From: an uncultured Methylomarinum sp.
GTDB taxonomy: Bacteria > Pseudomonadota > Gammaproteobacteria > Methylococcales > Methylomonadaceae
Direction of reading: 5' to 3'
DNA: 42,958 nt
Assembly (NCBI GenBank): GCA_964392135.1
Contig: CAYMPX010000001.1
Coordinates: forward strand, 1 to 42,958
Shown here: one piece after another, positions 8,773 through 24,685 of the stretch
How the letters are laid out: the number at the start of each line of letters is the position of its first letter
Position numbering within the stretch: position 1 is the first letter of the stretch
The notes under the pieces: generated by a model
What the model was told of the DNA's origin: nothing
Databases searched by the model: none
Seen by the model: the letters and a program-made list of their open reading frames with translations, nothing else
Position numbers and translations under genes: made by a program

Positions 8773-10366
8773 TATGCGCCTCCATTTGATGGGTCATATG
8801 ATCCATTGAAGAATGCGCCGGCATATCCGCAGACTGTTTCATGGAGTGATTTTTGTAATGATTCGATACTTCAGGTTGATCATGCATTTTCATCATCATC
8901 TCAGTATGGTTACCGGAAGAACCGGTTATTTTTCCTTTGTTATTAACTGGTTTGGTAACAGCGGGTTTGGTGTTTTGTTGTTTCATGCCTCCTGCTGCAT
9001 CCAGCATTTTAGCGGTGGCTTCACGCAGTTTTGATTCTGAATCAATCAGGAACTGTGCCGAAGTGACGACTTCTTCACCTTCTTTAATGCCTTCCAGTAT
9101 GGCGATTTTGCCATTTGAAGACAGACCTAGTTTGACTATACGCGGCTCAAACTTGCCATGCCCGCGCACGATAAAAACCTGGGCGCGGGTGCCGGAGCGG
9201 ATAATGGCTTCGGGCGGAATAACAATCGCATTCAATTGTTTGCGGGCATAAATAGACACTTCGGCAAACATATCGGGTTTTAACAGTAATTCCGGATTTT
9301 GAAAAACCAGCCGCACTTTGATGGTGCGCGTTTTAGCTTCAGCATAAGGATAGATATAAGCCACATGACCTTTAAAAGTTTTCCCGGGAACACCGATCAA
9401 TTGCATATCCACGGTGTCACCCTCTCTGACCCAGGGTAATTCATATTCATAAATATCGGCATAGACCCAGACTGTGCTCAAATCAGCAATCATGTAAATT
9501 TCCGTCTCAGGCGTTACATATTGTCCTTCGCGTGCGCCGATATTCATGACAATGCCGGCTGCCGGTGTATGAATGTGCAGATTTTTTTTGATTTTATGGG
9601 TGCGTTCCAGTTCACGGATTTGATGAGCCGGGACATCCAGCAGTTCCAGACGTTGACGGGAACTGGCCACTAATTCTTTAGCGCCGCGCCGGATATCTTC
9701 AATCGGACTTTTTTCCAGCGCTTTCAAATTGTTTAATGCCAGCAGATATTCCTGTTGAGTGGTCACTAATTGTGGCGAATAAATACTTAACAAATCGGTA
9801 TCTTTCTTTACCCATTGTCCGGTTTTATCGACATGCAAACGATCAATCCAGCCTTCTATTTTTGGATGTAAACGAACCAGTACCTCTTCGTTATAGTCAA
9901 CCCGACCCACTGCCCGGATGGTATGGGACATAGTGCTTCTGACTGCTTTAGCCGTTCGTACGGAAATTTGTTGCACCACTGTGCCATCGATTTTAACGGT
10001 ACCGCTGGGTTCATCATCGTCACTGTTGTCTGCATAAACCGGCACATAATCCATACCCATTGAATCTTTAGCCGGTACGGGTGAGGTAACCGATGGATTC
10101 ATGGAGCTGCGATAAAACAGAATTTTACGTTCTTTGGGTTTGTCCGGTTCTGCATAAACCGCTACATAATCCATACCCATTGCATCCTTTGCCGGAGTCG
10201 GTGAAGTCACAGACGGGTTCATTGGATTACGATAAAATAATATTTTTCTTTCGGAAGAACGTGTAGTGTGTTGTTCATCGGTTTGTTTAGAGTTTGCTAA
10301 CCAATAACCGCCAGCCAATCCTATAGCAAGTGCCAACGGAGTAAGCATCAATAGGCTCTTATTCAT
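8765..10366 (-). CDS. cusB: CusB-type periplasmic adaptor with a duplicated N-terminal Met3 metal site and a His/Met-rich C-terminal tail
   Basis: 533 aa. The module ERKILFYR(N/S)xMNPSVTSPxPAKDxMGMDYVxVYA occurs twice and resembles the N-terminus of E. coli CusB (ERKILFWYDPMYP..FMDMDLVPKYA). The body is a membrane fusion protein, and the tail is HTEMMMKMHD..HSSMDHMTHQMEAH. It overlaps both neighbouring genes by 8 nt. Confidence 0.85.
   Translation of the reverse strand: MNKSLLMLTPLALAIGLAGGYWLANSKQTDEQHTTRSSERKILFYRNPMNPSVTSPTPAKDAMGMDYVAVYAEPDKPKERKILFYRSSMNPSVTSPVPAKDSMGMDYVPVYADNSDDDEPSGTVKIDGTVVQQISVRTAKAVRSTMSHTIRAVGRVDYNEEVLVRLHPKIEGWIDRLHVDKTGQWVKKDTDLLSIYSPQLVTTQQEYLLALNNLKALEKSPIEDIRRGAKELVASSRQRLELLDVPAHQIRELERTHKIKKNLHIHTPAAGIVMNIGAREGQYVTPETEIYMIADLSTVWVYADIYEYELPWVREGDTVDMQLIGVPGKTFKGHVAYIYPYAEAKTRTIKVRLVFQNPELLLKPDMFAEVSIYARKQLNAIVIPPEAIIRSGTRAQVFIVRGHGKFEPRIVKLGLSSNGKIAILEGIKEGEEVVTSAQFLIDSESKLREATAKMLDAAGGMKQQNTKPAVTKPVNNKGKITGSSGNHTEMMMKMHDQPEVSNHYKNHSMKQSADMPAHSSMDHMTHQMEAHND
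10031..10252 (-). repeat. Tandem in-frame duplication (120-bp period) inside cusB
   Basis: The stretches at about 10031-10132 and 10151-10252 are near-identical, for example TGCATAAACCG(G/C)(C/T)ACATAATCCATACCCATTG at 10030-10060 and 10150-10180. Confidence 0.85.
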
Positions 10367-11654
10367 AAATGTCTTCCTTGCCGATCATGGCAGTCAGTTG
10401 TGCCAATGCCTGGTTAGCTTCGGTTAAAACTTTCCAGTATTGGATTTCATAATTGTATAAAGTGATTTGGCTGCGCACCAGGTTCAAGAAATCGACCTTG
10501 TCCACCTGATAGCCAGACAGCATAGATGCCACGGTCTGTCTTGCCTGTGGGATAATGCCGCTTTTATATAACACAGACTGGTTTTTAGATTGCCGGAAAT
10601 CACTGGTTGCGTTTGAAATATCTGCGCGCACCTTATCCCACTCATCTTGTAAGTCATATTTTCGTTGTATCAATTCACGGCTACGCTGATCGACAGCTTT
10701 GCTTTGCTTGGTGGAAAAATAGAGGGGTACGGTCATGCTCAGTTTCATCGTGAGAAAATCTGCTCTTTGCTGGTCAGATACGGTGTTATCTCGTCCCCCA
10801 TAGTAAGCACCAATTTCAAAGTCTGGATAATAGTCCTTTTTCGCCAGATCGAGTCGTGATTTTGCAGCGTTGATTTTTTCACGTTTTGCTGACAGTAAAG
10901 CTCGGTATTGTTCGGCTTGTTGAAATAATGTGGAATCTGCTAATAAATCGGGCAGTTGTTCCGTTACTTTAGCTGGAATACGAATTTTGTTATCTGCCGG
11001 TATATCAAGCAATGCATTTAATTGCGCCTCGGCATTTTCCCGGGCACCAATAAGCACCAATTCACTATCAAACAGTTTGGATAATTCCAGTTGAGCTAAT
11101 AACACATCCTGCTGCAAACCTTCGCCGACTTCATATTTGGTTTGGGCAATTTCAACAAATTGACGTAATAAATCCTGGTTGACATGGATGATTTCAATGG
11201 CACGATCCAGATAATAAAGCACCCACCAGATTTTTTTGACATCGCGTAATAACAGCCAGCGAATTTCCGTCACATCATGTGAGGCGGCTTGCGCTTCATA
11301 ATCGGCTGCCTGTTCGCGTAGAGCCAGTTTGCCGGGGAAAGGAATAGCCTGGGAAATACCACCCTGTAACTGGGTCATATTTTCCTGACGGGTATCAAAG
11401 GTATCGACCGGCAGATTCAACGAATTAAAACTGACCGTAGGGTCAGGCAGGGTGCCGACCTGGGAGGGTATTGCAGCCAGCGCTTCAGATCGAGCCTGAA
11501 TTGCAGCCAGACCGGGGTTGTCTTGCACAGCAATATCAATCGCTGACTGCAACGTTAATGCCGTATTCTGCTCGGCATTAATACTACTGGATAAAATCAG
11601 CAATATAAAAAAAGTGCTGGTTTTGTTGAGTGAAATCATAAGATCCTCGTACAC
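10359..11654 (-). CDS. cusC: TolC/CusC-family outer-membrane efflux protein
   Basis: 431 aa with a signal peptide and two repeated OEP halves (LTLQSAIDIAVQDNPGL.., QARQTVASMLSGYQVDKVDFLNLV). It overlaps cusB. Confidence 0.85.
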   Translation of the reverse strand: MYEDLMISLNKTSTFFILLILSSSINAEQNTALTLQSAIDIAVQDNPGLAAIQARSEALAAIPSQVGTLPDPTVSFNSLNLPVDTFDTRQENMTQLQGGISQAIPFPGKLALREQAADYEAQAASHDVTEIRWLLLRDVKKIWWVLYYLDRAIEIIHVNQDLLRQFVEIAQTKYEVGEGLQQDVLLAQLELSKLFDSELVLIGARENAEAQLNALLDIPADNKIRIPAKVTEQLPDLLADSTLFQQAEQYRALLSAKREKINAAKSRLDLAKKDYYPDFEIGAYYGGRDNTVSDQQRADFLTMKLSMTVPLYFSTKQSKAVDQRSRELIQRKYDLQDEWDKVRADISNATSDFRQSKNQSVLYKSGIIPQARQTVASMLSGYQVDKVDFLNLVRSQITLYNYEIQYWKVLTEANQALAQLTAMIGKEDIYE

Positions 11655-11911: not shown

Positions 11912-12295
11912 TTAGAAGATTTGTTTGGGCGGTTTTAAATCAGAGGATAAAGGGGTGTCGTAAGGTGAGACGTATTCATAAATTGAATACGAGGGGGCGG
12001 TGACTGTATTAATTGTGGGTATTGAAGACATGATGCCATCACCACCACAAATATGCACAGTACAGCTACTGTGGCAATCCCTATCTGTCTGATGGTTTTG
12101 TAATACTTTAAGCGTATTGTGACCTAAAGATTGTGCACCATCAACTGATTGGGTAACAGAAATATTTTGACTTTCAGATAACTGACCAGACATATCTATA
12201 CCAGCACAATGATCAAACGCCGATGCAATGGGCGTTATCAGCATCATCAGTATAAGTAAAATTGGAAGGCCTTGTTTTTTCATTACTAAAGTCAT
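11912..12295 (-). CDS. Small secreted Cys/His-rich protein (possible CzcI/DUF2946-like metal-efflux accessory protein)
   Basis: 127 aa with a signal peptide (..PIASAFDHC) and the motifs DHC and DRDCHSSCTVHICGG. It sits upstream of and co-directional with cusCBA. I cannot verify the family assignment. Confidence 0.5.
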   Translation of the reverse strand: MTLVMKKQGLPILLILMMLITPIASAFDHCAGIDMSGQLSESQNISVTQSVDGAQSLGHNTLKVLQNHQTDRDCHSSCTVHICGGDGIMSSIPTINTVTAPSYSIYEYVSPYDTPLSSDLKPPKQIF

Positions 12296-12342: not shown

Positions 12343-12441
12343 TAAAAATTTTGTATGCTGTTTGTAAAAATCAGTTTTGGTTTTTTTGTCTCATTTGACA
12401 ATTTAGTTGAACTTTTATTGATTCTTGTTATCATTGGCATC

Positions 12442-12789
12442 ATGAAACGAGCGAGTATTTATTTTTTAGCATTTTTGACTTTTTGGATGTCCACCTGGAT
12501 GGTGACGGATATTCATGACTGGTCACTTACGGATGCTAATCAACCGCATCCTGTTTTTTCTATGCAACAGTCACACTCTGTTTCTGATATTCAAACAGCT
12601 ACTCAAGACCATACTCCGCATTGCGGGGTTTGTAGTTATGACCATGGCGGACATATGGGGCAAACACTGGCTGCGCCCCCCTTAGTAGCAAAAAGCTTTC
12701 CTGCACAAAATACAGCCAAGTCTTCCCTTCAATCTGAATTCTGGTATTCCAGAAGAATAGCACCCAAAATACGTCCTCCTATTGCCTGA
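12442..12789 (+). CDS. Small secreted or membrane-anchored His/Cys-rich protein (possible CzcI/DUF2946-like)
   Basis: The ORF is open from 12355, but the ATG at 12442 (MKRASIYFLAFLTFW..) gives a signal-like N-terminus. It contains the motif HTPHCGVCSYDHGGHMG and leads the czcCBA-like operon. Confidence 0.5.
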   Translation: MKRASIYFLAFLTFWMSTWMVTDIHDWSLTDANQPHPVFSMQQSHSVSDIQTATQDHTPHCGVCSYDHGGHMGQTLAAPPLVAKSFPAQNTAKSSLQSEFWYSRRIAPKIRPPIA

Positions 12790-12939: not shown

Positions 12940-14322
12940 ATGAACCCACAAGTAAAAAATAGTTCTTACGCGCGCGGGGTAGTCTCGCTCACGGCGCTAG
13001 GATTTTGTTTATCCTTTTCTCAAGCGTATGCAGAAACAGGCATTAATGCCCCTAAGCATCAGCTTAGCTTACAATCGCCCGATATAACTGCACAGCGCCC
13101 CGTTGCTTTAACACCTATTAAAGAGCCAACAACTCAACTGGTGTTAGCACAAGCACTGGCGCTGGCATTAACGGGTAACCCTGAACTTGCTGCCTTTTCC
13201 GGGGAAATCCGGGCGCGTGAAGCCGCAACATTACAGGCGAGCCTGATGCCTAACCCAGTATTCAACGCCAAAGCATTAAACTTTGGTAATAATGCCTTTA
13301 AAGATTTTGATGGCGACACCGTCAGGCTGCAATTGAGTCAATTAATTGAGCTGGGCGGTAAACGGGCCGCCCGAACCAAGGCCGCAACGCTGAATCAGGA
13401 GCTGGCTGACTGGGATTATGAAAGCAAGCGGATTGATATTTTGACTCAGACAACCCAGACATTTATCGGGGTGTTGACGGCACAAAAACGTCTGACCTTG
13501 CAACAACAATTATTGAAGTTGTCTACTCAAGTTCTGGACACCGCAATTGCTCAGGTAAAAGCAGGTAACGTCTCACCACTGGAAGAAACCAAAGCCCGGG
13601 TGGCAGAGGCTTCGTCGCGGGTTGAATTGATGCGTGCACAAAGAAAATTAATCACTGCCAGACAACAATTAGCCGCAACTTGGGGAAGCGAGAAATCTCA
13701 GTTCACTAGCGTAGTTGGAGATCTGGACAGTATTGATGAGCCACCCACACTGGAATCTTTATTTCAACGAGTCCAGCGTAACCCGGATTTGGCACGCTGG
13801 GTCACGGAAATTACCCGACGACAGGCCGTCATTGCCAGAGAAAAATCCAAAGCCATTCCTAATGTCAACCTGTCATTGGGTCTCGTTCAAAAAATGATAC
13901 CCGGTGATACCGCAATAATCGTTGGATTTTCTGTTCCCCTACAGCTATTTGACCGCAACCAAGGGAAAATTCAGGAGGCGGAACAGCGATTGAGCAAAGC
14001 GATGGATGTGCGGCGTAATGTTAAAGTCCGAATAGCGACTGCACTCAATACTGTTTATCAACAATTAGATACTGCCTATGTCACAGTAACAACCTTACGT
14101 CAAGAAGTGATACCGGGTGCTGAAAGTGCATTTAAAGCTGCCAGCCGAGGTTATCGCCTGGGTAAATTTGGCTTTCTTGATGTACTGGATGCGCAACGTA
14201 CATTGTTCCGTGTGAAAGCACAATATTTACAGGCGTTGTCAGATTACCATCAGAGTGTAAACCGTACTGAACGCTTGATTGGAAGTCCATTACAAGTCCC
14301 ACAAGAATCCGCGAGTAAATAA
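12940..14322 (+). CDS. TolC/CzcC-family outer-membrane efflux protein
   Basis: 460 aa. An AGGAGG Shine-Dalgarno (SD) site lies 5 nt upstream. It has a signal peptide ending QAYAE and a duplicated OEP architecture. Confidence 0.85.
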   Translation: MNPQVKNSSYARGVVSLTALGFCLSFSQAYAETGINAPKHQLSLQSPDITAQRPVALTPIKEPTTQLVLAQALALALTGNPELAAFSGEIRAREAATLQASLMPNPVFNAKALNFGNNAFKDFDGDTVRLQLSQLIELGGKRAARTKAATLNQELADWDYESKRIDILTQTTQTFIGVLTAQKRLTLQQQLLKLSTQVLDTAIAQVKAGNVSPLEETKARVAEASSRVELMRAQRKLITARQQLAATWGSEKSQFTSVVGDLDSIDEPPTLESLFQRVQRNPDLARWVTEITRRQAVIAREKSKAIPNVNLSLGLVQKMIPGDTAIIVGFSVPLQLFDRNQGKIQEAEQRLSKAMDVRRNVKVRIATALNTVYQQLDTAYVTVTTLRQEVIPGAESAFKAASRGYRLGKFGFLDVLDAQRTLFRVKAQYLQALSDYHQSVNRTERLIGSPLQVPQESASK

Positions 14323-14327
14323 AACCT

Positions 14328-15569
14328 ATGAAACTATCAATACCCACTGTCTTTGGTCAAAACAACATGAGGCATACGACTGCACTATTAGCACTGCTAC
14401 TGTGTTTGAGTTTGTCAAAATTGACTCTGGCAGCCGATCATGAACATGAGCATGAAAATCATGCGGATCATGCGGATCAGGCAGACCATGAAGATTCCGA
14501 ATTAAAATTATCTGCGAATGAATTAAAAGAATTCTCTATTGAAATCACTCGAGCAAAGTCGGGGACTATTAAAAAAACACAGGATTTGGCCGGGGAAGTG
14601 ATTGTTGAACCTAGCCGTTTGTATCACGTCGTTCCCCGGGTTTCTGGCGTAGTTCTCAGGGTTTATAAATTTCTCGGGGAACGTGTTAAAACCGGTGATT
14701 TATTAGCCACATTATCCAGTCGGGAACTGGCTAATGCCAAAGCACAATTTGTTGCGGCTGACAGTTTACTCAGACTGGCCAATACCACGCTGCAACGCGA
14801 ACAAAAACTGTATCGTGAAAAAATTACAGCAAAAAGTGATTACCTGGCAGCCAGACAAGCGCAAGTTGAGATGTCTGTCAAACGTAAAGTCGCCCAGCAA
14901 CAATTACTGGCTTTAGGGTTGACAAAACAGGCCGTCCAAAAAGTTTTAAAAAATGCGGACAAGGATTTGACTCTATACCAGTTACGCGCCCCAGTCGATG
15001 GCATTATTATTGGTAAACATGCTGTCAGTGGCGAAGTTCTAAATGTCAATAGCCGTAGCTTTACCGTGGCTGATTTATCGCAGGTTTGGGTGAATTTGAC
15101 TGTTTATCAACAGAGTTTACCTTTTATTCATTTAGATCAAGCTGTTAGTATTTTCAGCCGTTTTGGATTGGATGGTCAAACATTGGCGACTGAAGGCATT
15201 ATTAACTGGGTCAGCCCAACACTGGATGAGAAAATTCGCAGCGCGACTGCACGCGTTGTGATAGATAATCCTGATAGACATTGGCGTCCTGGACTATTTG
15301 TCAATGCCAAGGTCACGATTGCCGAAATCCAGGCAGGTGTGGTTATTCCTCTCACAGCACTACAAACGCTTAAGGGTGAAACCGTAGTCTTTATTCAACA
15401 CGAGGATGGCGATTTTGAACCACAGCCCGTTACCTTGGGTGACCGGGATTATCAGCAAGTGGAAATCCTTTCTGGATTAAAAGCAGGACAAATGTATGTC
15501 AGTCAGAATGCCTTTACTTTGAAAGCACAGTTACAAAAAGGTGAATTTGGCGAAGGTCATCACCATTAA
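14328..15569 (+). CDS. Efflux RND periplasmic adaptor (CzcB-like) with a His-rich N-terminus
   Basis: 413 aa. It carries ADHEHEHENHADHADQADHED after the signal peptide, has a membrane fusion protein body, and ends GEGHHH. Confidence 0.85.
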   Translation: MKLSIPTVFGQNNMRHTTALLALLLCLSLSKLTLAADHEHEHENHADHADQADHEDSELKLSANELKEFSIEITRAKSGTIKKTQDLAGEVIVEPSRLYHVVPRVSGVVLRVYKFLGERVKTGDLLATLSSRELANAKAQFVAADSLLRLANTTLQREQKLYREKITAKSDYLAARQAQVEMSVKRKVAQQQLLALGLTKQAVQKVLKNADKDLTLYQLRAPVDGIIIGKHAVSGEVLNVNSRSFTVADLSQVWVNLTVYQQSLPFIHLDQAVSIFSRFGLDGQTLATEGIINWVSPTLDEKIRSATARVVIDNPDRHWRPGLFVNAKVTIAEIQAGVVIPLTALQTLKGETVVFIQHEDGDFEPQPVTLGDRDYQQVEILSGLKAGQMYVSQNAFTLKAQLQKGEFGEGHHH

Positions 15570-15578
15570 AGGACAATT

Positions 15579-18500
15579 ATGAATCAAATAATTAATCTCT
15601 CTTTACGCAGCCGGTTATTAATGCTGGTACTGGCGGTTTTGGTGATTGCAGCCGGTTATCGCAGTTATCAGAAATTACCCGTGGATGCTTTTCCTGACGT
15701 ATCTCCCAATCTGGTGCAGATTTTTACCCTGACAGCAGGATTGGCACCCGAAGAAATTGAAAAATATGTGACTTATCCAGTCGAAGTTTCTATGAATGGC
15801 TTGCCAGGCATTGAAAAAATTCGCTCAATATCCAATTTTGGTCTGTCAGTTGTCAGTGTCTATTTTAAAGATGATATGGATATTTACTTTGTCCGGCAAC
15901 TGGTGAATGAGCGTTTACAGGAAGCCCGAGGACAAATACCGCCCGGTTATGGCGATCCACAAATGGGACCAATCTCAACGGGGATGGGACTGGTGTTATT
16001 TTATTACCTTAAAGATGACACGCATAAATATACACTGGAAGATCTGCGTACCATGCAAGACTGGATTGTTAAATTCAATCTGCAAACAGTCAAAGGGGTA
16101 ACAGAAGTTTTAGGTATTGGTGGTTTTGTTAAACAATTTCAGGTGGTGGTACATCCTGATGCATTGCTTCGCTATGGGGTGTCGCTGGCTGAGATTACCC
16201 GCCGTATTAACAGCAATAATCTCAATATTGGTGCTCAATATCTGGAATCTAACAACGAACAATTTATTATTCGTTCAGTTGGATTGTTACAAGGTATACC
16301 TGACATTAATCAGATTGTTATCAAAACGGTGGATGGTCGTCCCGTTTATTTACAAGATGTGGCAACGGTCAGAATCGGCGGTGCTATCCGCAGAGGATTG
16401 CAAACCCACAATGGCGAAGGAGAAGTCGTTGCTGGTATGGCGATCAAACTTTATGGAACCAATGCCTCAACGGTGATTGAACGGGTCGAAGAAAAAATTA
16501 ACAAAATCAATAAAGCCTTGCCTGAAGGGGTCACTATTGTGCCTTATTATCAGCAAAAAGATATTGTTGAAGGTGCTGTGAAGACTGTCAGCAATGCCTT
16601 GATACAAGGTATTGTTCTAGTGTCGCTGGTATTGTTTTTGTTTATGGGTGGGTTTCGTCCCAGCATTGTGGTGGCATTGGCCATTCCTTTTTCTGTTATG
16701 TTCGCCTTTATTGCCATGGGACAATTTGATTTGTCTGCCAATTTAATGTCATTAGGTGGCTTGGCAATTGCTATTGGTATGATGGTAGACGGCACCATTG
16801 TGATGGTTGAAAATGTAGACAGAATGTTACGTGAGTCCGATCCAGATGAACCCAGAATTCATGTGGTTGGCCGAGCATGTAGAGAAGTTGCAAAACCCAT
16901 TCTGTTTGCAATTTCAATTATTATCATTGTATTTCTGCCGCTTTTTACCCTGGAAGGGGTTGCTGGAAAAACCTTTAAACCACTGGCATTTACTGTTGCT
17001 CTAGCGATGCTTGGCTCGCTGGTTTACGCACTGTTTTTAGCACCGGTTATGTCAGATATATTGATGCGCCGTCAACAACCACGGGCAGACGGCAAACCTA
17101 ATATGGATGAACGCATTTTAAATGCGTTGCTTACACCTTATCGCCCTTTGGTGAGTTATTTTGTCAATCATCGAAAAATAGCTATTAGTGTTGCAGCGGG
17201 TCTATTATTACTGGGGAGTATTGTTTTTCCATTTTTAGGCTCTGAATTTACGCCAACCTTACAGGAAGGTACGATTGTTGTGCAATTAACGATGGCTCCT
17301 TCAGTGGCAATTACAGAAACCAGGAAAAATACGGAGATTGTCGAAAGACGTTTGTTGACCATTCCTGAAGTTATTGAAGTAACCAGCCGAATTGGTCGGG
17401 GTGAAGTGGGGGCGCATGCTGACCCTGTGAATTCAGCAGAAATGTATGTCATTCTCAAACCTAAGGACGAATGGCGCGAACCCGGCAATCAGGAATTTAT
17501 TGAACAGGAAATTCGCAAGAAAATAGCCAATCTGCCGGGTATGGCCGCTAACCTGACCCAACCGATTGAAATGACCGTAGAAGAATTGCTGGAAGGCGTG
17601 AAAGCGGAACTGGCAGTCAAATTATTTGGCGATGATTTGGATTTGTTGAAAAAAAATGCCGATAAAATTGCAGCGGTGATGAAACAAGTCCCTGGAGCGG
17701 CAGATGTCAAGGTCGATCAGGTGAGTGGTACGCCTCAATTAGTGATTACTCCAGATCGTCAGGCGATTGCGCGTTATGGTTTGAATATTGACGATGTACA
17801 GAATGTTATTCGTAGTGCTGTAGGAGGAACAACGGCTGGGCAAATTTTTGAAGGTATCCGCCGATTTGATATTTATATACGCTATGACAAAAAGTATCGA
17901 AATACCCCGGCAGCTATCGCCAATATTCTTATCAGCGGTCCCAATGGCTTACAGGTACCTTTGGCACAGATTGCCAATATCCGTGAAATTGTCGGGCCAA
18001 GACAAATCACCCGAGAGAATAACCAGCGTTTTATTACCATTCAAGCCAATGTAGTAGGACGTGATATTGGTTCATTTGTTGCAGAAGCTCAGCAGGCAAT
18101 TGACAACAAGGTATCACTGCCACCGGGGTATTTAACGACTTGGGGTGGGCAGTTCCGCCTACAGCAAGAGGCTAACGCCCGCCTTGCCGTGGTTGTACCT
18201 GTAACCTTGATTATTGTTGCCTTATTGCTTTACAGTAGTTTTAATTCACTGAAAAATGCGGCATTGATTTTACTGAATATTCCATTGGCTTTAGTGGGAG
18301 GCGTTATTGCTTTATGGTTGAGTGGTCAGAATTTATCTGTCCCCGCTTCAGTCGGCTTTATCGCGTTATTTGGTATTGCTTTAGAAAATGGCATGGTATT
18401 GGTGACCTATTTAAACCAGTTAGTCCGTGAAGGGGTTGCTCTTGATAAGGCTTCTATTCAAGGCGCCTGCCTTCGGGTGCGCCCCGTATTGATGACCGCA

Positions 18501-18668
18501 GTGACCACAGCATTGGGTTTAATCCCCTTATTACTGGCCAGTGGTACGGGGTCTGAAGTGCAACGACCGTTGGCAACGGTTGTTATTGGTGGCTTGGTTA
18601 CCTCAACTTTTTTAACGCTACTTATTATTCCTGCACTCTACAAATGGTTTGCAATAGAACCTAAATAA
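15579..18668 (+). CDS. CusA/CzcA-family heavy-metal efflux RND permease (CzcA-like periplasmic domain, substrate uncertain)
   Basis: 1029 aa. LTQPIEMTVEELLEGVKAELAVKLFGDD resembles CzcA. The TM4 motif, however, is GGLAIAIGMMVDGTIVMVEN (16755-16814), and the CusA methionine triad is not conserved. Confidence 0.85.
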   Translation: MNQIINLSLRSRLLMLVLAVLVIAAGYRSYQKLPVDAFPDVSPNLVQIFTLTAGLAPEEIEKYVTYPVEVSMNGLPGIEKIRSISNFGLSVVSVYFKDDMDIYFVRQLVNERLQEARGQIPPGYGDPQMGPISTGMGLVLFYYLKDDTHKYTLEDLRTMQDWIVKFNLQTVKGVTEVLGIGGFVKQFQVVVHPDALLRYGVSLAEITRRINSNNLNIGAQYLESNNEQFIIRSVGLLQGIPDINQIVIKTVDGRPVYLQDVATVRIGGAIRRGLQTHNGEGEVVAGMAIKLYGTNASTVIERVEEKINKINKALPEGVTIVPYYQQKDIVEGAVKTVSNALIQGIVLVSLVLFLFMGGFRPSIVVALAIPFSVMFAFIAMGQFDLSANLMSLGGLAIAIGMMVDGTIVMVENVDRMLRESDPDEPRIHVVGRACREVAKPILFAISIIIIVFLPLFTLEGVAGKTFKPLAFTVALAMLGSLVYALFLAPVMSDILMRRQQPRADGKPNMDERILNALLTPYRPLVSYFVNHRKIAISVAAGLLLLGSIVFPFLGSEFTPTLQEGTIVVQLTMAPSVAITETRKNTEIVERRLLTIPEVIEVTSRIGRGEVGAHADPVNSAEMYVILKPKDEWREPGNQEFIEQEIRKKIANLPGMAANLTQPIEMTVEELLEGVKAELAVKLFGDDLDLLKKNADKIAAVMKQVPGAADVKVDQVSGTPQLVITPDRQAIARYGLNIDDVQNVIRSAVGGTTAGQIFEGIRRFDIYIRYDKKYRNTPAAIANILISGPNGLQVPLAQIANIREIVGPRQITRENNQRFITIQANVVGRDIGSFVAEAQQAIDNKVSLPPGYLTTWGGQFRLQQEANARLAVVVPVTLIIVALLLYSSFNSLKNAALILLNIPLALVGGVIALWLSGQNLSVPASVGFIALFGIALENGMVLVTYLNQLVREGVALDKASIQGACLRVRPVLMTAVTTALGLIPLLLASGTGSEVQRPLATVVIGGLVTSTFLTLLIIPALYKWFAIEPK

Positions 18669-18704: not shown

Positions 18705-18740
18705 TAATTCGTGAAAAACTTAATTGAACAGGAAATTATT

Positions 18741-19205
18741 ATGTCTAAAAAAATAATCTTATCATCATTTCTAGCAACCTTGGCATTCGCCTCTTTTTCA
18801 GCTCAAGCGGGGAAAATTAAATTATCTGACGTTCCAGAAGCCGTTATTAAAACCATGAAAGCAGAACATCCTGATGCAAAAAATATCAAAGTTGATAAAG
18901 CATTACATTTTGGAATAGTACTCTATGAAGTGAAATATAAAACCAATGGCAAACAGCATGAAACCTTATTTGAGTCGCATGGTAAACACTTTGGACATGA
19001 AGAAGAAGTTGAGGTCTCGGAGTTACCTAAAGCCATCCTTAAAACACTGAATCAGACCTTTAAAAACCTAAGTATTCAGGATGCTGAAAAAATTGAACAC
19101 CCTGATGGTCGGATTGAATATGAGATTGATATTAATGATAATGGTGTAGATTGGGAATTAGCTATGAATCCAGAAGGCGATATTTTAGTGAAGGAAAGAG
19201 ATTAA
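18741..19205 (+). CDS. Periplasmic PepSY-like (DUF2874-type) protein
   Basis: The ORF is open from a GTG at 18711. The ATG at 18741 is preceded by AGGAA. It has a signal peptide ending SAQAG and two repeats of the beta-rich module (YEVKYKTNGKQHETLF and IEYEIDINDNGVDWELAMNPEGDIL). Confidence 0.55.
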   Translation: MSKKIILSSFLATLAFASFSAQAGKIKLSDVPEAVIKTMKAEHPDAKNIKVDKALHFGIVLYEVKYKTNGKQHETLFESHGKHFGHEEEVEVSELPKAILKTLNQTFKNLSIQDAEKIEHPDGRIEYEIDINDNGVDWELAMNPEGDILVKERD

Positions 19206-19206
19206 T

Positions 19207-19548
19207 ATGAAACAAGTTATTGCCTATATAAAACCCCATAAATTAGATAATATTATGCTGGCGTTGCATGGGATTGAAAAATTAACGGGAATCAGCGTAT
19301 TAGAAATGCGTGGCTGTGGTCGTAGTCGTAAAGCGAGTCAGACATCAATCTTTGATAAAGACAATTATGGCTTGGTTTCTCGCTTAAAACTGGAAATAGC
19401 CTGTTGTGATGAGCTGGTTGAACAGGTTATTACAGCGCTACAGGACAGTGCGCATACAGGGCTTAGAGGAGATGGAAAAATCTATGTGCTACCTGTGCTG
19501 GAAGCGGTTCGTATTAGTACAGGTGACACTGGCGAAATAGCAATTTAA
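19207..19548 (+). CDS. P-II (GlnB-like) family signal-transduction protein with a divergent T-loop
   Basis: 113 aa, alignable to GlnB along its whole length (MKQVIAYIKPHKLD.., GDGKIYVLPVLEAVRISTGDTGEIAI). The T-loop region GCGRSRKASQTSIFDKDNYG differs from canonical GlnB/GlnK. The start lies 1 nt after the upstream stop codon. Confidence 0.8.
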   Translation: MKQVIAYIKPHKLDNIMLALHGIEKLTGISVLEMRGCGRSRKASQTSIFDKDNYGLVSRLKLEIACCDELVEQVITALQDSAHTGLRGDGKIYVLPVLEAVRISTGDTGEIAI

Positions 19549-19600: not shown

Positions 19601-21904
19601 ATGAAAACACCTGAAACAAATTGTTGCTGCCATAACGAGCCAACAGAGACTCAAGCTCTTTCATCAATGTCCACAGCTGGCATAACCTTTAAAATAGAAG
19701 GTCTCGACTGTGTTGAAGAAGTCAGCATTTTAAAATCAGAAATCGGTCCTTTAGTTGGTGGTGGTGATAAACTGGCTTTTGATGTTATCAATGGTCGTAT
19801 GACGATTATTGCAGAAGCCATACAGGTGACTGAAAAAACCATAATCAAAGCCGTTGCTGCAACCGGAATGAAAGCCACACGCTGGAAACCGGGAGAAACA
19901 CAAACAGATGTTAACCAACGGCAACGATCACAGACCCTTTATGCAACAGTCAGTGGTTTGTGTATTGTTACGGGGGTATTGATACATGTAGCCATCGCCG
20001 GTGGTTTTACTGATATTCAACAATTTTTTCTAGCGCCCGAAACATGGACTTATTCATGGCAAGACTTGGGGCATTATCTTAAAAATCTATTAAACGCTCA
20101 TAGCTCACAAACTATGCCGCTGGCTGAAAAAGCAGCTTATAGTCTGGCTATAATTTTTGGCGTTCGCCATGTTATTGTAAAAGCTTTTTATGCTTTAAAA
20201 CGGCTACGTGCTGATATGAACTTATTGATGCTGGTTGCCATTATTGGTGCCATGTTTATTAATGAGTGGTTTGAAGCCGCAGCCGTTAGTTTTTTATTTT
20301 CTTTATCTTTAGCCATTGAAAGCTGGAGTATAGGTCGTGCAAGACATGCAGTAGAAGCCTTATTAGATCTAGCACCTTCCAAAGTAACCGTCAAACAAGA
20401 GAACGGACAAGCGTTTGATATTCCCGCTGCTGAAGTCACAATAGGTACCGTGTTTATTGTCAAACCAGGCGATAAAATTCCACTGGATGGTGAGGTAGTA
20501 ACAGGTATCAGTTCAGTCAACCAGGCACCGATTACCGGTGAAAGTATCCCTGTGACTAAACAAACAGGGGATGATGTTTACGCGGGGAGTATTAATGGCG
20601 AAGCAGTACTGGAAATTAAAGCGAGTAAATTCGCTTCTGATACCACGTTGGCACATATAGTTCGCATGGTTGAAGATGCACATAGCAAACGTGCCGAAAC
20701 TGAACAGTGGGTGGAAAATTTTGCCCGTATTTATACGCCTATCGTGATGCTGTTGGCTTTAGCCGTATTTATTATTCCACCGTTATTTTTTGCAGGTATT
20801 TGGCAGTTATGGTTGTATAAAGCATTAGTCTTATTAGTGATTGCTTGTCCTTGTGCACTGGTCATTTCTACGCCTGTCAGTATTGTTGCTGCATTAGCCT
20901 GTGCAGCCAGACAAGGTATCCTGATAAAAGGCGGAATTTATATAGAAGCACCTGCACACCTTAATGCCATTGCTTTTGACAAAACGGGGACGTTGACCTG
21001 TGGCAACCCTGTAGTTACGGGGCTTTATCCCTTTAACAATCATAGTGAAGAAGAGCTGCTCAGTCGAGCTGCCGCATTAGAATCACGCAGTAACCATCCG
21101 CTTGCCAAAGCTATTTTAAACTATACCGAAAGCCAAGGTGTTCAGATTGCCAGTGCTGAAAATGTTGCTGTTTTGCCTGGAAAAGGGGTAACAGGCTTAT
21201 TTAACGGTGCTGATTTTTGGCTGGGTTCCAGACGTTATTTATTGGAACGTGGACAGGAAACCCCAAAAATCAGTCAACAAGCTCTGGTTTTGGAACAGAC
21301 CGGAAAAACAGTGATTGCCATTGGTAATGAGCAGCATGTCTGTGGTCTTATCGCTGTTGCAGATCAGCCAAGACCGCAAATCAACTCGGTTTTGCAAGCT
21401 CTGAAACAGAGCGGTATTCAACATTTAGCCATGCTAACAGGTGACAACCAGGTAACCGCTGAAAATATTGCCAAAGCTTGTGGCATAAATGAAGTTCATG
21501 CCGAATTACTTCCAGCCGATAAGGTTGAGATTGTGGGACAAATGGTCGAACACTATGGCAATGTGGCAATGATAGGTGATGGCATCAATGATGCACCTGC
21601 ACTGGGTAGAGCTAATTTAGGGATTGCTATGGGCGTGATGGGATCGGATGCTGCCATAGAGACAGCAGATATTGCCTTAATGGGTGACGATCTTTCCAAA
21701 TTACCCTGGCTAATCAATCATTCAAAAAGGACATTAAGTATTATCCGGCAAAATATTGTTTTTGCACTGTCACTGAAAGCTGCTTTTGCAATTTTAGCGT
21801 TTGCCGGAATGGCAACTTTATGGCAAGCCATTGCTGCGGATATGGGAGCTTCTTTGTTGGTAGTGGCTAATGGACTGAGACTGTTAAAGCCCAAAGGAAT
21901 TTGA
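19601..21904 (+). CDS. zntA: Heavy-metal P1B-type ATPase, Zn/Cd/Pb (P1B-2) class
   Basis: 767 aa with TGES, CPC in TM4 (ACPCALVIS), DKTGTLT and GDGINDAPAL. A Lys in TM5 (SLKAAF) and ADMG in TM6 match the P1B-2 signature. The N-terminus carries CCCH plus a degenerate HMA domain (GLDCVEE). Confidence 0.85.
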   Translation: MKTPETNCCCHNEPTETQALSSMSTAGITFKIEGLDCVEEVSILKSEIGPLVGGGDKLAFDVINGRMTIIAEAIQVTEKTIIKAVAATGMKATRWKPGETQTDVNQRQRSQTLYATVSGLCIVTGVLIHVAIAGGFTDIQQFFLAPETWTYSWQDLGHYLKNLLNAHSSQTMPLAEKAAYSLAIIFGVRHVIVKAFYALKRLRADMNLLMLVAIIGAMFINEWFEAAAVSFLFSLSLAIESWSIGRARHAVEALLDLAPSKVTVKQENGQAFDIPAAEVTIGTVFIVKPGDKIPLDGEVVTGISSVNQAPITGESIPVTKQTGDDVYAGSINGEAVLEIKASKFASDTTLAHIVRMVEDAHSKRAETEQWVENFARIYTPIVMLLALAVFIIPPLFFAGIWQLWLYKALVLLVIACPCALVISTPVSIVAALACAARQGILIKGGIYIEAPAHLNAIAFDKTGTLTCGNPVVTGLYPFNNHSEEELLSRAAALESRSNHPLAKAILNYTESQGVQIASAENVAVLPGKGVTGLFNGADFWLGSRRYLLERGQETPKISQQALVLEQTGKTVIAIGNEQHVCGLIAVADQPRPQINSVLQALKQSGIQHLAMLTGDNQVTAENIAKACGINEVHAELLPADKVEIVGQMVEHYGNVAMIGDGINDAPALGRANLGIAMGVMGSDAAIETADIALMGDDLSKLPWLINHSKRTLSIIRQNIVFALSLKAAFAILAFAGMATLWQAIAADMGASLLVVANGLRLLKPKGI

Positions 21905-21907
21905 CGG

Positions 21908-22336
21908 TTAGAGTACAAAAATATGTTTTTGTACTCCTTTATCTGTACTTTCGATTTTCTCAATAATGGGACAACCCAGCTGGCTACAAGCACATGAACC
22001 AATCAGCCCTTGTAATTCTTGACGTAATATATCTAACTCTGATATTTGTTTTTCAATGACATCTAGTTTTTGTTGTGTCAATTCGCGGACATCTTCACGC
22101 ATTTGCTTTGGGTTATCACGCATTTTGAGTAATGCTTTTATTTCATCCAGCGTAAAGTTCATCAATTTTGCGCGTTGAATAAATTGTATTCTGGCAATAT
22201 CTGATTCACTATATAAACGAATGCCTCCGCTATTGCGGTTGATGGATGCTAATAAATTGATTTTTTCATAATAACGCAACGTATCAATACTGATCTTTAA
22301 TTGTTTGGCGACGGTGCCTATTCGATAACTTTTCAT
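21908..22336 (-). CDS. MerR-family metal-responsive transcriptional regulator (ZntR/CadR/PbrR-like)
   Basis: It has a helix-turn-helix (YRIGTVAKQLKISIDTLRYYEKINLL), a coiled-coil dimerisation helix and a C-terminal Cys loop (GSCACSQLGCP). The ATG at 22336 forms an ATGA overlap with the NHL gene stop codon. The ORF is open back to 22354. Confidence 0.85.
   Translation of the reverse strand: MKSYRIGTVAKQLKISIDTLRYYEKINLLASINRNSGGIRLYSESDIARIQFIQRAKLMNFTLDEIKALLKMRDNPKQMREDVRELTQQKLDVIEKQISELDILRQELQGLIGSCACSQLGCPIIEKIESTDKGVQKHIFVL
21911..21936. terminator. Bidirectional hairpin between the convergent ATPase and MerR genes
   Basis: GAGTACAAAAA (21911-21921) pairs with TTTTTGTACTC (21926-21936) around a 4-nt loop. 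It starts 7 nt after the ATPase stop codon and overlaps the last codons of the MerR ORF. Confidence 0.5.
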
Positions 22337-23322
22337 GATGTGCCTGGTTGCCATTTCTGGATTCTATTATTGCCAAAATCAGCAACAAACACCGTGCCAT
22401 CATCAGCAACCGCAACGGCAATCGCATGTTGAAATTGGCCAGGCTCACTCCCTTTGGTTCCAAATCGAGTTAAAAATTCTCCGGCTTTGTTGAATTTCTG
22501 AATACGGTGATTATAAAAATCTGCAACAAACAGCTGGTCTGACTTATCGATGGCAATAGATGTGGTGGTGGCGAACCAACTATTAAATGGTCCGAAAATA
22601 TTCAACCCAAAAGGACCACCCCATTTATGTAAAAACTTGCCAGCCTTGGAAAAAACCTGAATACGGTCGTTATAGCCATCGGCAATATAAAGATTGCCAT
22701 CTGAGTCAAGTGCAACATCGGTGGGATAATTAAATTCTCCTGCCCAGATTCCAGTTTCTTCAGTATTTCCCCACTGTTCGATAAAACCACCCTCTGCACT
22801 GAGGTGCTGAATACGTTGATTATAAAAATCAGCGACAAACAAATCACCATCTGCTGCGATAGCCACACCGCCCGGCGCATTAAATTCACCGGGGGCGTTT
22901 CCATGTTTACCGATACTGCGATGGAGAACACCATCCAAACTAAAGACCTGAATTCTATCGTTCCAATAATCGGCAACGTAGAGTTCACCATTATGGATAG
23001 ACAGATTCATAGGACGACCCAGTTGCCCTGGTTCTGTTCCTTTTGTGCCAAACTGACGTTTGAAGTGACCTTCATAATTAAAAACCTGAATGCGTGCATT
23101 ACGTGCATCGCTGACAAATACCTCAGTTTTACTGACAGCGATTCCAGTGGGATCATTGAACTGTCCCGGCGCTGATCCCTTTTCTCCCCAGGCTTTAACA
23201 AAGTGATAATCCGCTTCTATTGCCGAAGGTATCCAGACAACCCAAACTATCACAAGTAAAGCAAGGATTATGGCTATTAAAGCCAAACTATATTTGATTA
23301 GCATTTTGTTTATCATGCACAA
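22333..23322 (-). CDS. Membrane-anchored six-bladed NHL-repeat beta-propeller protein
   Basis: 329 aa with an N-terminal TM helix (LALIAIILALLVIVWVVWI). Six repeats follow the pattern F(N/Q)xPxGxAxxxxGxL(F/Y)VADxxNxRIQxF. Confidence 0.8.
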   Translation of the reverse strand: MCMINKMLIKYSLALIAIILALLVIVWVVWIPSAIEADYHFVKAWGEKGSAPGQFNDPTGIAVSKTEVFVSDARNARIQVFNYEGHFKRQFGTKGTEPGQLGRPMNLSIHNGELYVADYWNDRIQVFSLDGVLHRSIGKHGNAPGEFNAPGGVAIAADGDLFVADFYNQRIQHLSAEGGFIEQWGNTEETGIWAGEFNYPTDVALDSDGNLYIADGYNDRIQVFSKAGKFLHKWGGPFGLNIFGPFNSWFATTTSIAIDKSDQLFVADFYNHRIQKFNKAGEFLTRFGTKGSEPGQFQHAIAVAVADDGTVFVADFGNNRIQKWQPGTS

Positions 23323-23384
23323 GCCTCTGATTTAATGTTAAATCCTCGCTCCTAAGGAAATTAATGTAGGATGTGCGTTCTACT

Positions 23385-24299
23385 TTAAAAGTTAAAACGA
23401 AACCCTGCCCGAACAATAGAGGCATTTTCCAAAGCCATGCCATTCAGTTGTTGAACTACCGGTATTTGCACGGCGGCTTCAACCACCCAACGCTGGGTGA
23501 CGTATTGTAAACCCGGGGTTAAAAACCATAGAGTTCCTCCTGAGTTATGATCAGACTGGCTATTGATCCGGTTTTTCTGTCGAAATAATAAATTACTTTC
23601 CAATACACCATAAAGAAACCCTGGAATTTCGCTAGTTAAGGTTTTTGGCCACAAACGATATTGCAGGGAGGTATCAAAACGAGTTTGGTTACCTGCAGAA
23701 AACCCCTTTGCTTCACCATTTCCCCGGTAGCTAATCTGGCTATCAACCTGGTAATCCAGTGTTTGGTAGGTAGTCACGATGCCACCAAAGGCATCCCAGG
23801 AACCGGAGCCAGACTGTACGCTGGGCGGTAATCTGCCTGCATCGTCACGGGAACCATTTTTTCCTGCAGGAGCTTTGAACCCGGCAAACGGTGCGATGCG
23901 CAAAGTACGTCCCAACCAATCTTTCTGGTAGGCAGTATAACGACCAAACAGGCTAACGTCTCCAAGCCCATCGTTTTGCCTATTAAAACTTTGCCCGGAA
24001 ACAGTGATATCAAGACTTTTGTTAACGTAGGGCAGTACACCAAACAGGGCAAGTTTTCTTGATACGCCATAACCCAGGACAGATACAGCTGACCATGCAG
24101 TTCGATCCCGGTCAGATTCACCTGGATCATGTCCGGATTGATTTATTACAAACTGCTGGCGGAAGATAAATTCTTTTTTTGCCACAGGTAATGCAGTATT
24201 AAAAGTGATTGGAGCAGCCCAAATCAATTTGTTAATGCCAATACATAATATCAGTAACAATAAGCCGTTCAAATGGTTATGGTTACTGGACAGTTTCAT
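23385..24299 (-). CDS. Outer-membrane beta-barrel channel (MetA-pathway/transporter-like family)
   Basis: 304 aa with a signal peptide (..LIWAAP), alternating beta-strand pattern and a C-terminal RAGFRFNF (terminal Phe). It overlaps the upstream HMA gene by 17 nt. Confidence 0.6.
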   Translation of the reverse strand: MKLSSNHNHLNGLLLLILCIGINKLIWAAPITFNTALPVAKKEFIFRQQFVINQSGHDPGESDRDRTAWSAVSVLGYGVSRKLALFGVLPYVNKSLDITVSGQSFNRQNDGLGDVSLFGRYTAYQKDWLGRTLRIAPFAGFKAPAGKNGSRDDAGRLPPSVQSGSGSWDAFGGIVTTYQTLDYQVDSQISYRGNGEAKGFSAGNQTRFDTSLQYRLWPKTLTSEIPGFLYGVLESNLLFRQKNRINSQSDHNSGGTLWFLTPGLQYVTQRWVVEAAVQIPVVQQLNGMALENASIVRAGFRFNF

Positions 24300-24606
24300 C
24301 TGAGTTATCTATTTTGCTCTGCTTAAACGCCCGCAAGGTAAATCCTGCATCGGTGACGGCTTGTCGAGCCTGTTCTTTATCAAGGCGAGTGTCTTTCTGC
24401 ATGGTGACGTTAACCAACCCCTTACTAATATCAACAACAACGCTGTCAACACCCTCTATAGCACTCAACTGCTTTTCTATGCCATAGGCACAAAACGGAC
24501 AGCCAAGCCCGTCAACCTGTATTGTATAAATAGTTTCTTTTGCTTGTACTATTGGTGCTACTAATAATAGGATCAGGTTTATCACAATGATTCTAACTGT
24601 TTTCAT
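24283..24606 (-). CDS. Periplasmic heavy-metal-associated (HMA, MerP-like) protein
   Basis: 107 aa with a signal peptide (..PIVQAKE) and the HMA fold motif VDGLGCPFCAYGIEKQL. A GAAGGAG SD site lies upstream. Confidence 0.8.
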   Translation of the reverse strand: MKTVRIIVINLILLLVAPIVQAKETIYTIQVDGLGCPFCAYGIEKQLSAIEGVDSVVVDISKGLVNVTMQKDTRLDKEQARQAVTDAGFTLRAFKQSKIDNSDETVQ

Positions 24607-24654
24607 TTCAACTCCTTCGTGTGACTATGGACTTATTGACTATTTTGCAAACAA

Positions 24655-24685
24655 ATCATATTCTCTGGAGTTAGCTCTAGGTCAA
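24655..24685 (-). promoter_or_regulatory. MerR-type promoter/operator with a 19-bp spacer
   Basis: On the minus strand: TTGACC (24685-24680), the 19-nt spacer TAGAGCTAACTCCAGAGAA, then TATGAT (24660-24655). The spacer contains the imperfect dyad CTAGAG-CTAA-CTCCAG. The promoter lies 49 nt upstream of the HMA gene start. Confidence 0.7.

Follow-up and report, generated by a model that had tools for sequence, protein, structure and literature searches.

The stretch of DNA analysed here, referred to as the window, comprises 42,958 nt of contig CAYMPX010000001.1 (assembly GCA_964392135.1) from an uncultured Methylomarinum sp. and carries on its minus strand a four-gene block (21908-24606) encoding, in this order, an HMA-domain protein, an outer-membrane (OM) beta-barrel, an NHL propeller and a MerR-family regulator. 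According to the list of open reading frames (ORFs), the HMA gene lies at 24283-24606 (107 aa), the barrel gene at 23385-24299 (304 aa) and the NHL gene at 22333-23322 (329 aa), while the regulator gene at 21908-22354 encodes 148 aa, or 142 aa if the ATG at 22336 is the start. The HMA gene is preceded by a GGAG ribosome-binding site and overlaps the barrel gene by 17 nt; a gap of 62 nt separates the barrel and NHL genes, and the sequence ATGA combines the NHL stop codon with the in-frame internal ATG of the regulator gene. An earlier interpretation made from the letters only (the sequence-only reading) had described four coupled genes behind a MerR-type promoter, and both parts of this description held: the four ORFs and their couplings were all found, and a pattern match at 24655-24685 of the minus strand placed the elements TTGACC-19 nt-TATGAT ahead of the operon, with an imperfect dyad operator, CCTAGAGCTAACTCCAGA, inside the spacer (24664-24681). 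A dyad within a 19-bp spacer agrees with the organization of MerR-target promoters, which have spacers of 19-20 bp (PMC1526738). The dyad, in the form of the relatives' consensus, matched the window once against 0.02 matches expected by chance, and a search across the whole window for a second operator, which would indicate a regulon shared with the neighbouring ATPase and resistance-nodulation-division (RND) genes, found none.

The first gene product contains an HMA domain (PF00403, E = 5e-11), a signal peptide and the motif VDGLGCPFCAYGIEK with its CPFC pair, as expected for the secreted HMA protein that had been proposed. The pattern VDGL[AGS]CPFCAYGIEK and a hydrophobic, signal-peptide-like N-terminus were kept in 68 HMA orthologues. 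The protein shares the HMA fold and the CxxC pair with MerP, but its score to the MerP model TIGR02052 was too low (34.7 against a cutoff of 92.55) and the window holds neither merT nor merA; the CopZ cutoff was also missed.

The second gene product has a signal peptide, a near-invariant N-terminal segment (residues 29-44) and a C-terminus ending in RFNF. The window protein itself gave no Pfam match even at E<=10 and no NCBIfam assignment, and a profile search of PDB sequences returned no identification. Its homologues (n=2343) mostly carry PF13557, which was matched by 34 of 44 close family members (best E = 2.7e-16), and 135 clusters at 50% identity reached E<=1e-30. The AF2 model showed an all-beta barrel (pLDDT 82), and Foldseek matched it to FapF (5o65/5o67) and to the COG4313 channel Pput2725 (4rl8) with TM-scores of 0.6-0.74. 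As direct profile assignment failed, the identity is drawn from the PF13557 matches of family members and from the fold search, according to which the barrel is modelled as a 12-stranded OM protein of a divergent PF13557/COG4313 subfamily with the COG4313/FapF fold, in keeping with the OM barrel of the earlier proposal. As modelled, it resembles the COG4313/PF13557 channels (Pput2725, TcpY, SphA) and FapF in the 12 strands, the length of about 300 aa and an N-terminal segment before strand 1. In the window family this segment, located just after the signal peptide, is the most conserved stretch of the protein (13 of 16 positions at least 90% conserved); it was modelled at low confidence. COG4313 channels are recognised as 12-stranded barrels of 270-320 aa with the N-terminal segment in the lumen, a plug position that the segment may also take in the window protein. 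The known COG4313/FapF members are tied to hydrophobic organic compounds or amyloid secretion and not to metals (PMC4493636), whereas barrels of the window subfamily invariably come with both an HMA protein and an NHL propeller.

The third gene product matched PF01436 in six stretches (E = 8e-46). Its AF2 model (pLDDT 95) comprised a transmembrane helix (residues 2-30) followed by 24 strands forming a six-bladed propeller, and comparison with the NHL domains of Thin, TRIM71 and TRIM2 gave TM-scores of 0.8/0.93, with 0.93 for TRIM71 and Thin. Structure prediction thus supports the membrane-anchored, six-bladed propeller that had been suggested, and the protein is predicted to be an inner-membrane-anchored periplasmic propeller. 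The mature domain is free of Cys, and the residues that never vary are those with a structural role in the repeat, together with a conserved aromatic insertion at residues 233-254. The six-bladed fold is shared with the TRIM-type and PknD-type propellers, from which the window protein differs in being bacterial, inner-membrane-anchored and periplasmic and in having the aromatic insertion. Since its nearest structural relatives are binding modules and not enzymes, the propeller is tentatively read as a scaffold. Identity with the scytonemin NHL protein ScyF was rejected (NF035926 score 234.8 against a cutoff of 350); the window protein is anchored at its N-terminus and carries no PEP-CTERM tail.

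Conservation of the HMA-barrel-NHL triad

A scan with the NHL alignment, restricted to one genome per species, revealed 161 relatives, of which the best 80 loci, 58-78% identical to the NHL protein, were taken. Methylococcaceae metagenome-assembled genomes (MAGs) were closest among these best 80 loci, which also came from Acidiferrobacterales, Pseudomonas, Burkholderiales/Rhodocyclales (Nitrotoga, Gallionella, Polaromonas, Undibacterium, Aromatoleum, Azoarcus), Roseovarius and other Alphaproteobacteria, Nitrospirota, Nitrospinota and SAR324. Synteny was determined in the 73 loci with enough upstream sequence, and neighbouring genes were counted in 82 loci. The barrel gene was located directly upstream of the NHL gene on the same strand in 68 of the 73 testable loci, and the full order HMA>barrel>NHL was found in 66. 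As a unit, the triad is therefore conserved in no fewer than five bacterial phyla or classes; it is widespread and probably horizontally spread. Cultured carriers include Aromatoleum toluclasticum, Undibacterium griseum, Roseovarius nitratireducens and Pseudomonas sp. sp1636. Among PLSDB plasmids no orthologue of the window NHL protein was detected, the best match (41% identity) being unrelated.

The regulator gene behaved differently from the triad. It was either downstream, as in the window (46-84% identity), or swapped for an upstream three-Cys regulator accompanied by a thioredoxin, or absent nearby. In addition, three regulators about 55% identical to that of the window formed the last gene of HMA-thioredoxin-DsbD_TM operons without barrel or NHL genes (L089:4071-6402, L090:3329-6408, L091:4370-6423), and the last of these operons adjoins three multicopper oxidase genes and a cation diffusion facilitator (CDF) transporter. 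Since regulator type and position vary and window-type regulators also occur without barrel and NHL genes, the regulator is best described as a swappable sensor and a four-gene conserved unit was rejected; of the four genes, three are co-conserved, in 66 of 73 loci, and the regulator is not a fixed part. This distribution suggests that the sensor family of the window serves a wider regulon of periplasmic thiol and soft-metal functions. In a few loci (L059:6001-7372, L077:3325-4934), an NHL orthologue was found with a thioredoxin and a window-type regulator and with no adjacent barrel or HMA gene, and thus the link between propeller and regulator can exist alone. Upstream of the triad, about a dozen loci carried another, paralogous module with the gene order reversed, a barrel gene (24-30% identical) and then an HMA gene (e.g., L065:3152-4690, L042:1647-3100, L035:7933-9800, L016:4498-5896), often followed by a gene for a membrane protein of about 130 aa with a MerT-like CC motif and no NCBIfam match.

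Public annotation of these genes is generic ("transporter", "NHL repeat-containing protein", "6-bladed beta-propeller", "heavy metal-responsive transcriptional regulator"), and full-text literature searches returned no description of the HMA-barrel-NHL combination, in accordance with the earlier statement that the combination was not recognised as a described resistance determinant. What is new is therefore an undescribed effector triad within a MerR-controlled metal determinant, while MerR-controlled metal determinants as such are already known.

Regulator types and operators

The regulator of the window contains PF13411, PF09278 and PF00376, as general members of the MerR family do, and has the loop SCACSQLGCPIIE (SCACSQLGCP) and no helix Cys, which confirms the description given before. 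Its best NCBIfam score was to ZntR (PRK09514), at 112.6 against a cutoff of 143; a second ZntR model gave 95.6 against 167.95, the MerR equivalog 100.8 against 150.85, the CueR model 98.8 against 147.4 and the CadR/PbrR model 90.2 against 151.45. All four identities were rejected. In addition to the scores, the protein lacks the helix Cys, the CC pair and the His of ZntR (ligands Cys79, Cys114/115, His119 and Cys124); relative to CueR it has Arg in place of Ser77, a C-x6-C loop in place of C112-x7-C120 and an operator that is not of the ACCTTCC type; relative to mercury-type MerR it lacks the helix Cys and its operator is unlike TCCGTAC-4-GTACGGA; and the helix Cys of CadR/PbrR is also absent.

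An alignment of the window protein with about 70 regulators from the loci and with reference sequences that we take to represent ZntR, CueR and Tn501 MerR revealed that the triad is controlled by three regulator types in different lineages. The window type lacks the helix Cys, has Arg or Lys at the position of CueR Ser77 and of the divalent-sensor Cys, and carries a C-x6-C loop followed by GCPI[IL]E; a middle loop Cys (CAC, CCC, CSC or CVC) was found only in the Methylococcaceae clade of this type. The scores of window-type regulators were 93-113 bits for each of ZntR, CueR and MerR, and no cutoff was passed. The second type, with three Cys (DC...ACPGxG....CSI), is located directly upstream of many triads, and its best NCBIfam match was MerR TIGR02051 (126-141 bits against a cutoff of 150.85). 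The third type is a canonical MerR and adjoins merT. The window regulator shares with the CueR and ZntR subfamilies the winged helix-turn-helix, the coiled coil, a C-terminal Cys loop that ends in CPII, and an operator dyad within an overlong spacer, but it differs from both in having C-x6-C and not C-x7-C, Arg or Lys at CueR Ser77/ZntR Cys79, and the additional, clade-specific Cys (CAC). It also mixes the subfamilies, its operator core being ZntR-like and its ligand set and 19-bp spacer CueR-like. A MerR subfamily with such an unusual ligand set could serve as a biosensor part.

The operators divided along the same lines as the regulators, and that of the window is shared by relatives. The arrangement TTGACCTGGAGT-NN-ACTCCAGG...TAnnnT, with a 19-bp spacer, was found upstream of the HMA gene in eight loci (L002, L004, L006, L007, L009, L012, L061 and L068), and a strict match to promoter plus dyad occurred upstream of this gene in 12 of 66 loci compared to 9 of 840 control windows. 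The 19-bp spacer of the window-type promoters is the length found for MerR and CueR (PMC1526738). In two other lineages (L028, Gallionella; L050, a Roseovarius MAG), the sites upstream of the triad have a 7-4-7 layout and are close to the proteobacterial mer operator consensus, TCCGTAC-4-GTACGGA (PMC1526738).

Metal genes around the triad

Neighbouring ORFs were clustered, representatives were scanned, and mer genes were then counted by tblastn. The scan identified MerA (528 bits, TIGR02053 cutoff 454) as well as MerT, MerF and MerC, and 30 of the 82 loci had at least one of merA, merT, merF and merC no more than 6 kb from the triad (MerA in 24, MerT in 23, MerF in 15 and MerC in 3). In seven loci (L019, L034, L043, L044, L057, L078 and L082), merA was followed by the HMA gene after only 52-152 bp. 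Several independent arrangements were seen. The architecture merR<>merT-merF-merA and then HMA-barrel-NHL was present in Nitrotoga, Gallionella, Aromatoleum, Novimethylophilus and Rugosibacter; Roseovarius showed the order merTFA-regulator-HMA-barrel-NHL, alphaproteobacterial MAGs had the triad beside a divergent merR/merTFA, and in Porticoccaceae a divergent merTPCA lay opposite regulator-HMA-barrel-NHL. Three further metagenome contigs, picked solely for their length, all carried MerT, MerF, MerA or MerB beside the triad; one had MerB, and another had the string MerR-Trx-MerT-MerP-zfCopZ-HMA-barrel-NHL. On two unrelated metagenome contigs (L086:4937-5398, L087:9127-9582), a gene for a protein of about 150 aa with a zf_CopZ domain (PF18423) separated MerT/MerP-like genes from the triad or from its regulator. 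About 33 of the 82 loci had an adjacent gene for a small thioredoxin-like protein, and 9 had one for a CcdA/DsbD-like protein. ZntA-type ATPases were neighbours of the triad in 6 of 82 loci, all from the clade of the window.

At the transmembrane metal site, other P1B ATPases next to triads read GYPCALG where CPC is usual, and their N-terminal HMA domain has GGMxCSFC (L013:1699-4203, L017:6493-8997, L027:381-2921, L036:1873-4185, L040:1017-3533, L060:1179-3542, L065:6982-9399). They score above the cutoff of the Cu-type model TIGR01511 despite this atypical signature, and the label "CopA-like" was dropped on account of the YPC motif.

In the window, the operon is located at the end of a metal-efflux island, which includes a set of RND, membrane-fusion and outer-membrane factor genes on the minus strand (5602-11654), a czcCBA-like set on the plus strand (12940-18668) and a P1B-2 (Zn/Cd/Pb-type) ATPase gene, also on the plus strand (19601-21904). 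The ATPase scored 608 bits to TIGR01525 and 516 bits to TIGR01512 and has the motifs CPC and ADMGAS and an N-terminal CCCH; the same neighbour was found in L004, L006 and L007. The ATPase and regulator genes are convergent, with stop codons 3 bp apart. A hairpin with an 11-bp stem (21911-21936), a possible terminator of the ATPase transcript, follows directly after the ATPase stop and lies within the final codons of the regulator gene, and the two transcripts therefore probably overlap or interfere. The sequence-only reading had stated that the operon contains no ATPase or RND component, which is correct for the operon itself and incomplete for its surroundings, given this ATPase and the two RND systems within 17 kb. 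Likewise, its view of the operon as a metal-handling unit stands in that the genes are co-conserved, linked to metal genes and provided with their own MerR promoter and regulator, but the unit is not isolated from pumps.

Proposed function and alternative explanations

Together, the association of the triad with mer genes, with thioredoxins and with Hg-type MerR regulators and operators points to thiophilic metals. We consider it somewhat better than an even chance (roughly 0.55) that the operon is a self-regulated copy of an envelope module for thiophilic (soft) metals, with Hg(II) as the likeliest substrate of the family. In this scheme, metal would be bound by the C-x6-C loop of the regulator, with the extra Cys in the window clade, and the metal-bound regulator would untwist the 19-bp-spacer promoter by the standard MerR distortion of DNA, switching on the operon and with it the regulator gene. 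Periplasmic metal would be captured by the CPFC pair of the secreted HMA protein, the COG4313/FapF-like 12-stranded barrel would provide a route across the outer membrane, and the Cys-free propeller may be a periplasmic scaffold on which the HMA protein and/or the invariant N-terminal segment of the barrel dock; the part of the barrel in transport and that of the propeller are inferred. At family level, the barrel could represent an OM step upstream of MerP, MerT and MerA, and a passive OM channel makes thermodynamic sense as a path of uptake into a MerP/MerT/MerA sink.

The mer operon transport arm (MerR-MerP-MerT/C/F-MerA) resembles the triad operon: in both, the periplasmic HMA protein carries CxxC, the controlling promoter is of the MerR type with a spacer of 19 bp, and thiol chemistry is relied on. 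The window differs from it in the absence of merA, merT, merC and merF, in an HMA protein far below the MerP cutoff and in a regulator without the helix Cys of MerR, and we know of no described mer operon with an OM barrel or an NHL propeller. Like CusCFBA, whose CusF is a small periplasmic soft-metal chaperone, the triad operon encodes a putative chaperone of this kind along with an OM component, and it would likewise be induced by metal. CusF, however, has an OB fold, and the OM component of CusCFBA is a TolC-like trimer, whereas the triad has an HMA-fold protein and a 12-stranded barrel of the monomer type, and its unit contains neither an RND pump nor a membrane-fusion protein.

Several observations weigh against a soft-metal module centred on Hg(II). 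No mer gene was found inside 6 kb in 52 of the 82 loci, and tblastn with MerA, MerT, MerF and MerC gave no match in the window, which thus lacks the combination of merA with merT, merC or merF that defines a mer operon; thioredoxin and CcdA homologues were also not found in the window. Without MerA as a sink, a channel for uptake would do the cell harm. The family alignments revealed no conserved Cys or His ligands in either the barrel or the propeller. Window-type regulators carry a CueR-like two-Cys ligand set and also adjoin multicopper oxidases, a cupredoxin and CopD, while the operator core of the window, CTnGAG..CTCCAG, resembles the ZntR consensus palindrome ACTCTGGAGTCGACTCCAGAGT (PMC1526738). 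Where a window-type regulator and mer genes co-occur (L065, L070, L087), a separate canonical MerR is present, which suggests that the window-type regulator answers to a different signal from that of the canonical MerR. Proximity to metal genes is in itself weak evidence, since metal-resistance genes cluster in islands, but it is far more difficult to explain away the recurrent direct adjacency of merA in varied architectures and in different classes. For the window itself, the picture is less clear owing to the missing MerA sink, the adjacent efflux pumps and the CueR-like ligand set with an extra Cys, and the inducer may be Hg/Cd-like or Cu/Ag-like, just as transport may run in either direction. 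The earlier conclusion that the inducing metal could not be inferred thus keeps its force as to the choice between these two inducer classes in the window; for the family, the evidence narrows it to thiophilic metals.

The neighbourhood of the window could also be explained if the operon were a Zn/Cd/Pb-responsive accessory of the adjacent ZntA-type ATPase and the czc-like RND pumps, with a ZntR/CadR-like sensor and a triad that buffers or releases the periplasmic cations pumped by the ATPase. The convergent P1B-2 ATPase 3 bp away, the island with two RND systems and the same surroundings in the closest relatives (L004, L006, L007) fit this explanation, as do the ZntR-like operator core, the top NCBIfam score to ZntR PRK09514 and the third loop Cys specific to the window clade. 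We regard it as unlikely, however: the regulator has neither the helix Cys nor the CC/His ligands of ZntR and falls below both ZntR cutoffs, the spacer is 19 and not 20 bp (PMC1526738), the operator occurs solely at the triad operon with none upstream of the ATPase, the distance to the ATPase differs among L006, L007 and L009, and ZntA-type neighbours are confined to the window clade (6 of 82 loci). Quite unlikely, too, is a Cu(I)/Ag(I)-responsive periplasmic copper module, of relevance to a methanotroph-like host, in which a CueR-like two-coordinate sensor would govern an HMA protein acting as copper chaperone. The absence of a helix Cys and the two loop Cys followed by GCPII (compare CPIIE in CueR) are in line with such a sensor, relatives bear the JGI label "copper efflux regulator", the nearest loci come from Methylococcaceae MAGs, copper-type genes are found beside relatives (multicopper oxidases at L091; a CopZ-ATPase-cupredoxin set and CopD at L088), and triad-adjacent ATPases exceed the cutoff of the Cu-type model TIGR01511. 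These ATPases nevertheless have YPC where CopA has CPC, and the CueR score is only 98.8 against 147.4; moreover, the loop is one residue shorter than that of CueR, Arg or Lys replaces its Ser77, the operator differs from the ACCTTCC...GGAAGGT type (PMC1526738), and mer genes are the commonest metal-specific neighbours.

Two further explanations assign the barrel a cargo other than metal ions. It might export the HMA protein, metal-loaded or not, to the surface or the medium as a secreted metal sponge, with the propeller as an assembly factor; the polypeptide exporter FapF is the best structural match, the operon starts with the HMA gene, whose translation is coupled to that of the barrel gene, and an OM barrel has no energy source to pump ions. 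As the barrel lacks the N-terminal coiled-coil extension of FapF, has the size of COG4313 channels and belongs to a family with PF13557 matches, and as the HMA protein folds into a compact domain, we think this highly improbable. Uptake of hydrophobic molecules, in which characterised COG4313 members are implicated (PMC4493636), would make the barrel and propeller an importer of a hydrophobic organic compound and the link to metal genes incidental. Against this, which we hold to be scarcely credible, stand the invariant coupling to a CxxC HMA protein, the control by heavy-metal-type MerR regulators with Cys loops, the recurrence of mer, ATPase and thioredoxin genes as neighbours and the absence of catabolic genes nearby.

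Beyond the soft-metal module favoured for the operon, a bolder and rather doubtful proposal is that the triad constitutes a dedicated OM/periplasmic pathway for Hg(II) and related soft metals, an unrecognised OM component of mercury handling in which the barrel would admit or release metal, the propeller would couple it to HMA carriers, and different lineages would have recruited different MerR-type sensors. OM crossing limits both mercury resistance and mercury bioavailability, methylation included, and to our knowledge the passage of Hg(II) and other soft metals through the Gram-negative outer membrane has yet to be explained. The triad is a concrete candidate for this step, and one amenable to experiment, being compact, about 60% identical across phyla, equipped with a putative OM channel, repeatedly attached to mer operons and present in cultured hosts. 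If true, this would be the first metal-related role for COG4313 barrels and for a bacterial NHL propeller.

Within the efflux island, a PepSY-like gene and a P-II-like gene (18711-19548) are located between the czc-like RND pump and the ATPase, and the pairing of P-II and ATPase genes was seen again in related Methylococcaceae loci (L004:10748-11089, L006:11921-12259). The rest of the window consists of chromosomal housekeeping genes, e.g., aspS and an anthranilate-synthase-like gene. Two small divergent ORFs between the RND operons, at 11912-12295 on the minus strand and 12355-12789 on the plus strand, encode Cys/His-rich products with hydrophobic N-termini and without a Pfam match, which could serve the efflux island as periplasmic metal-binding proteins or as regulators.

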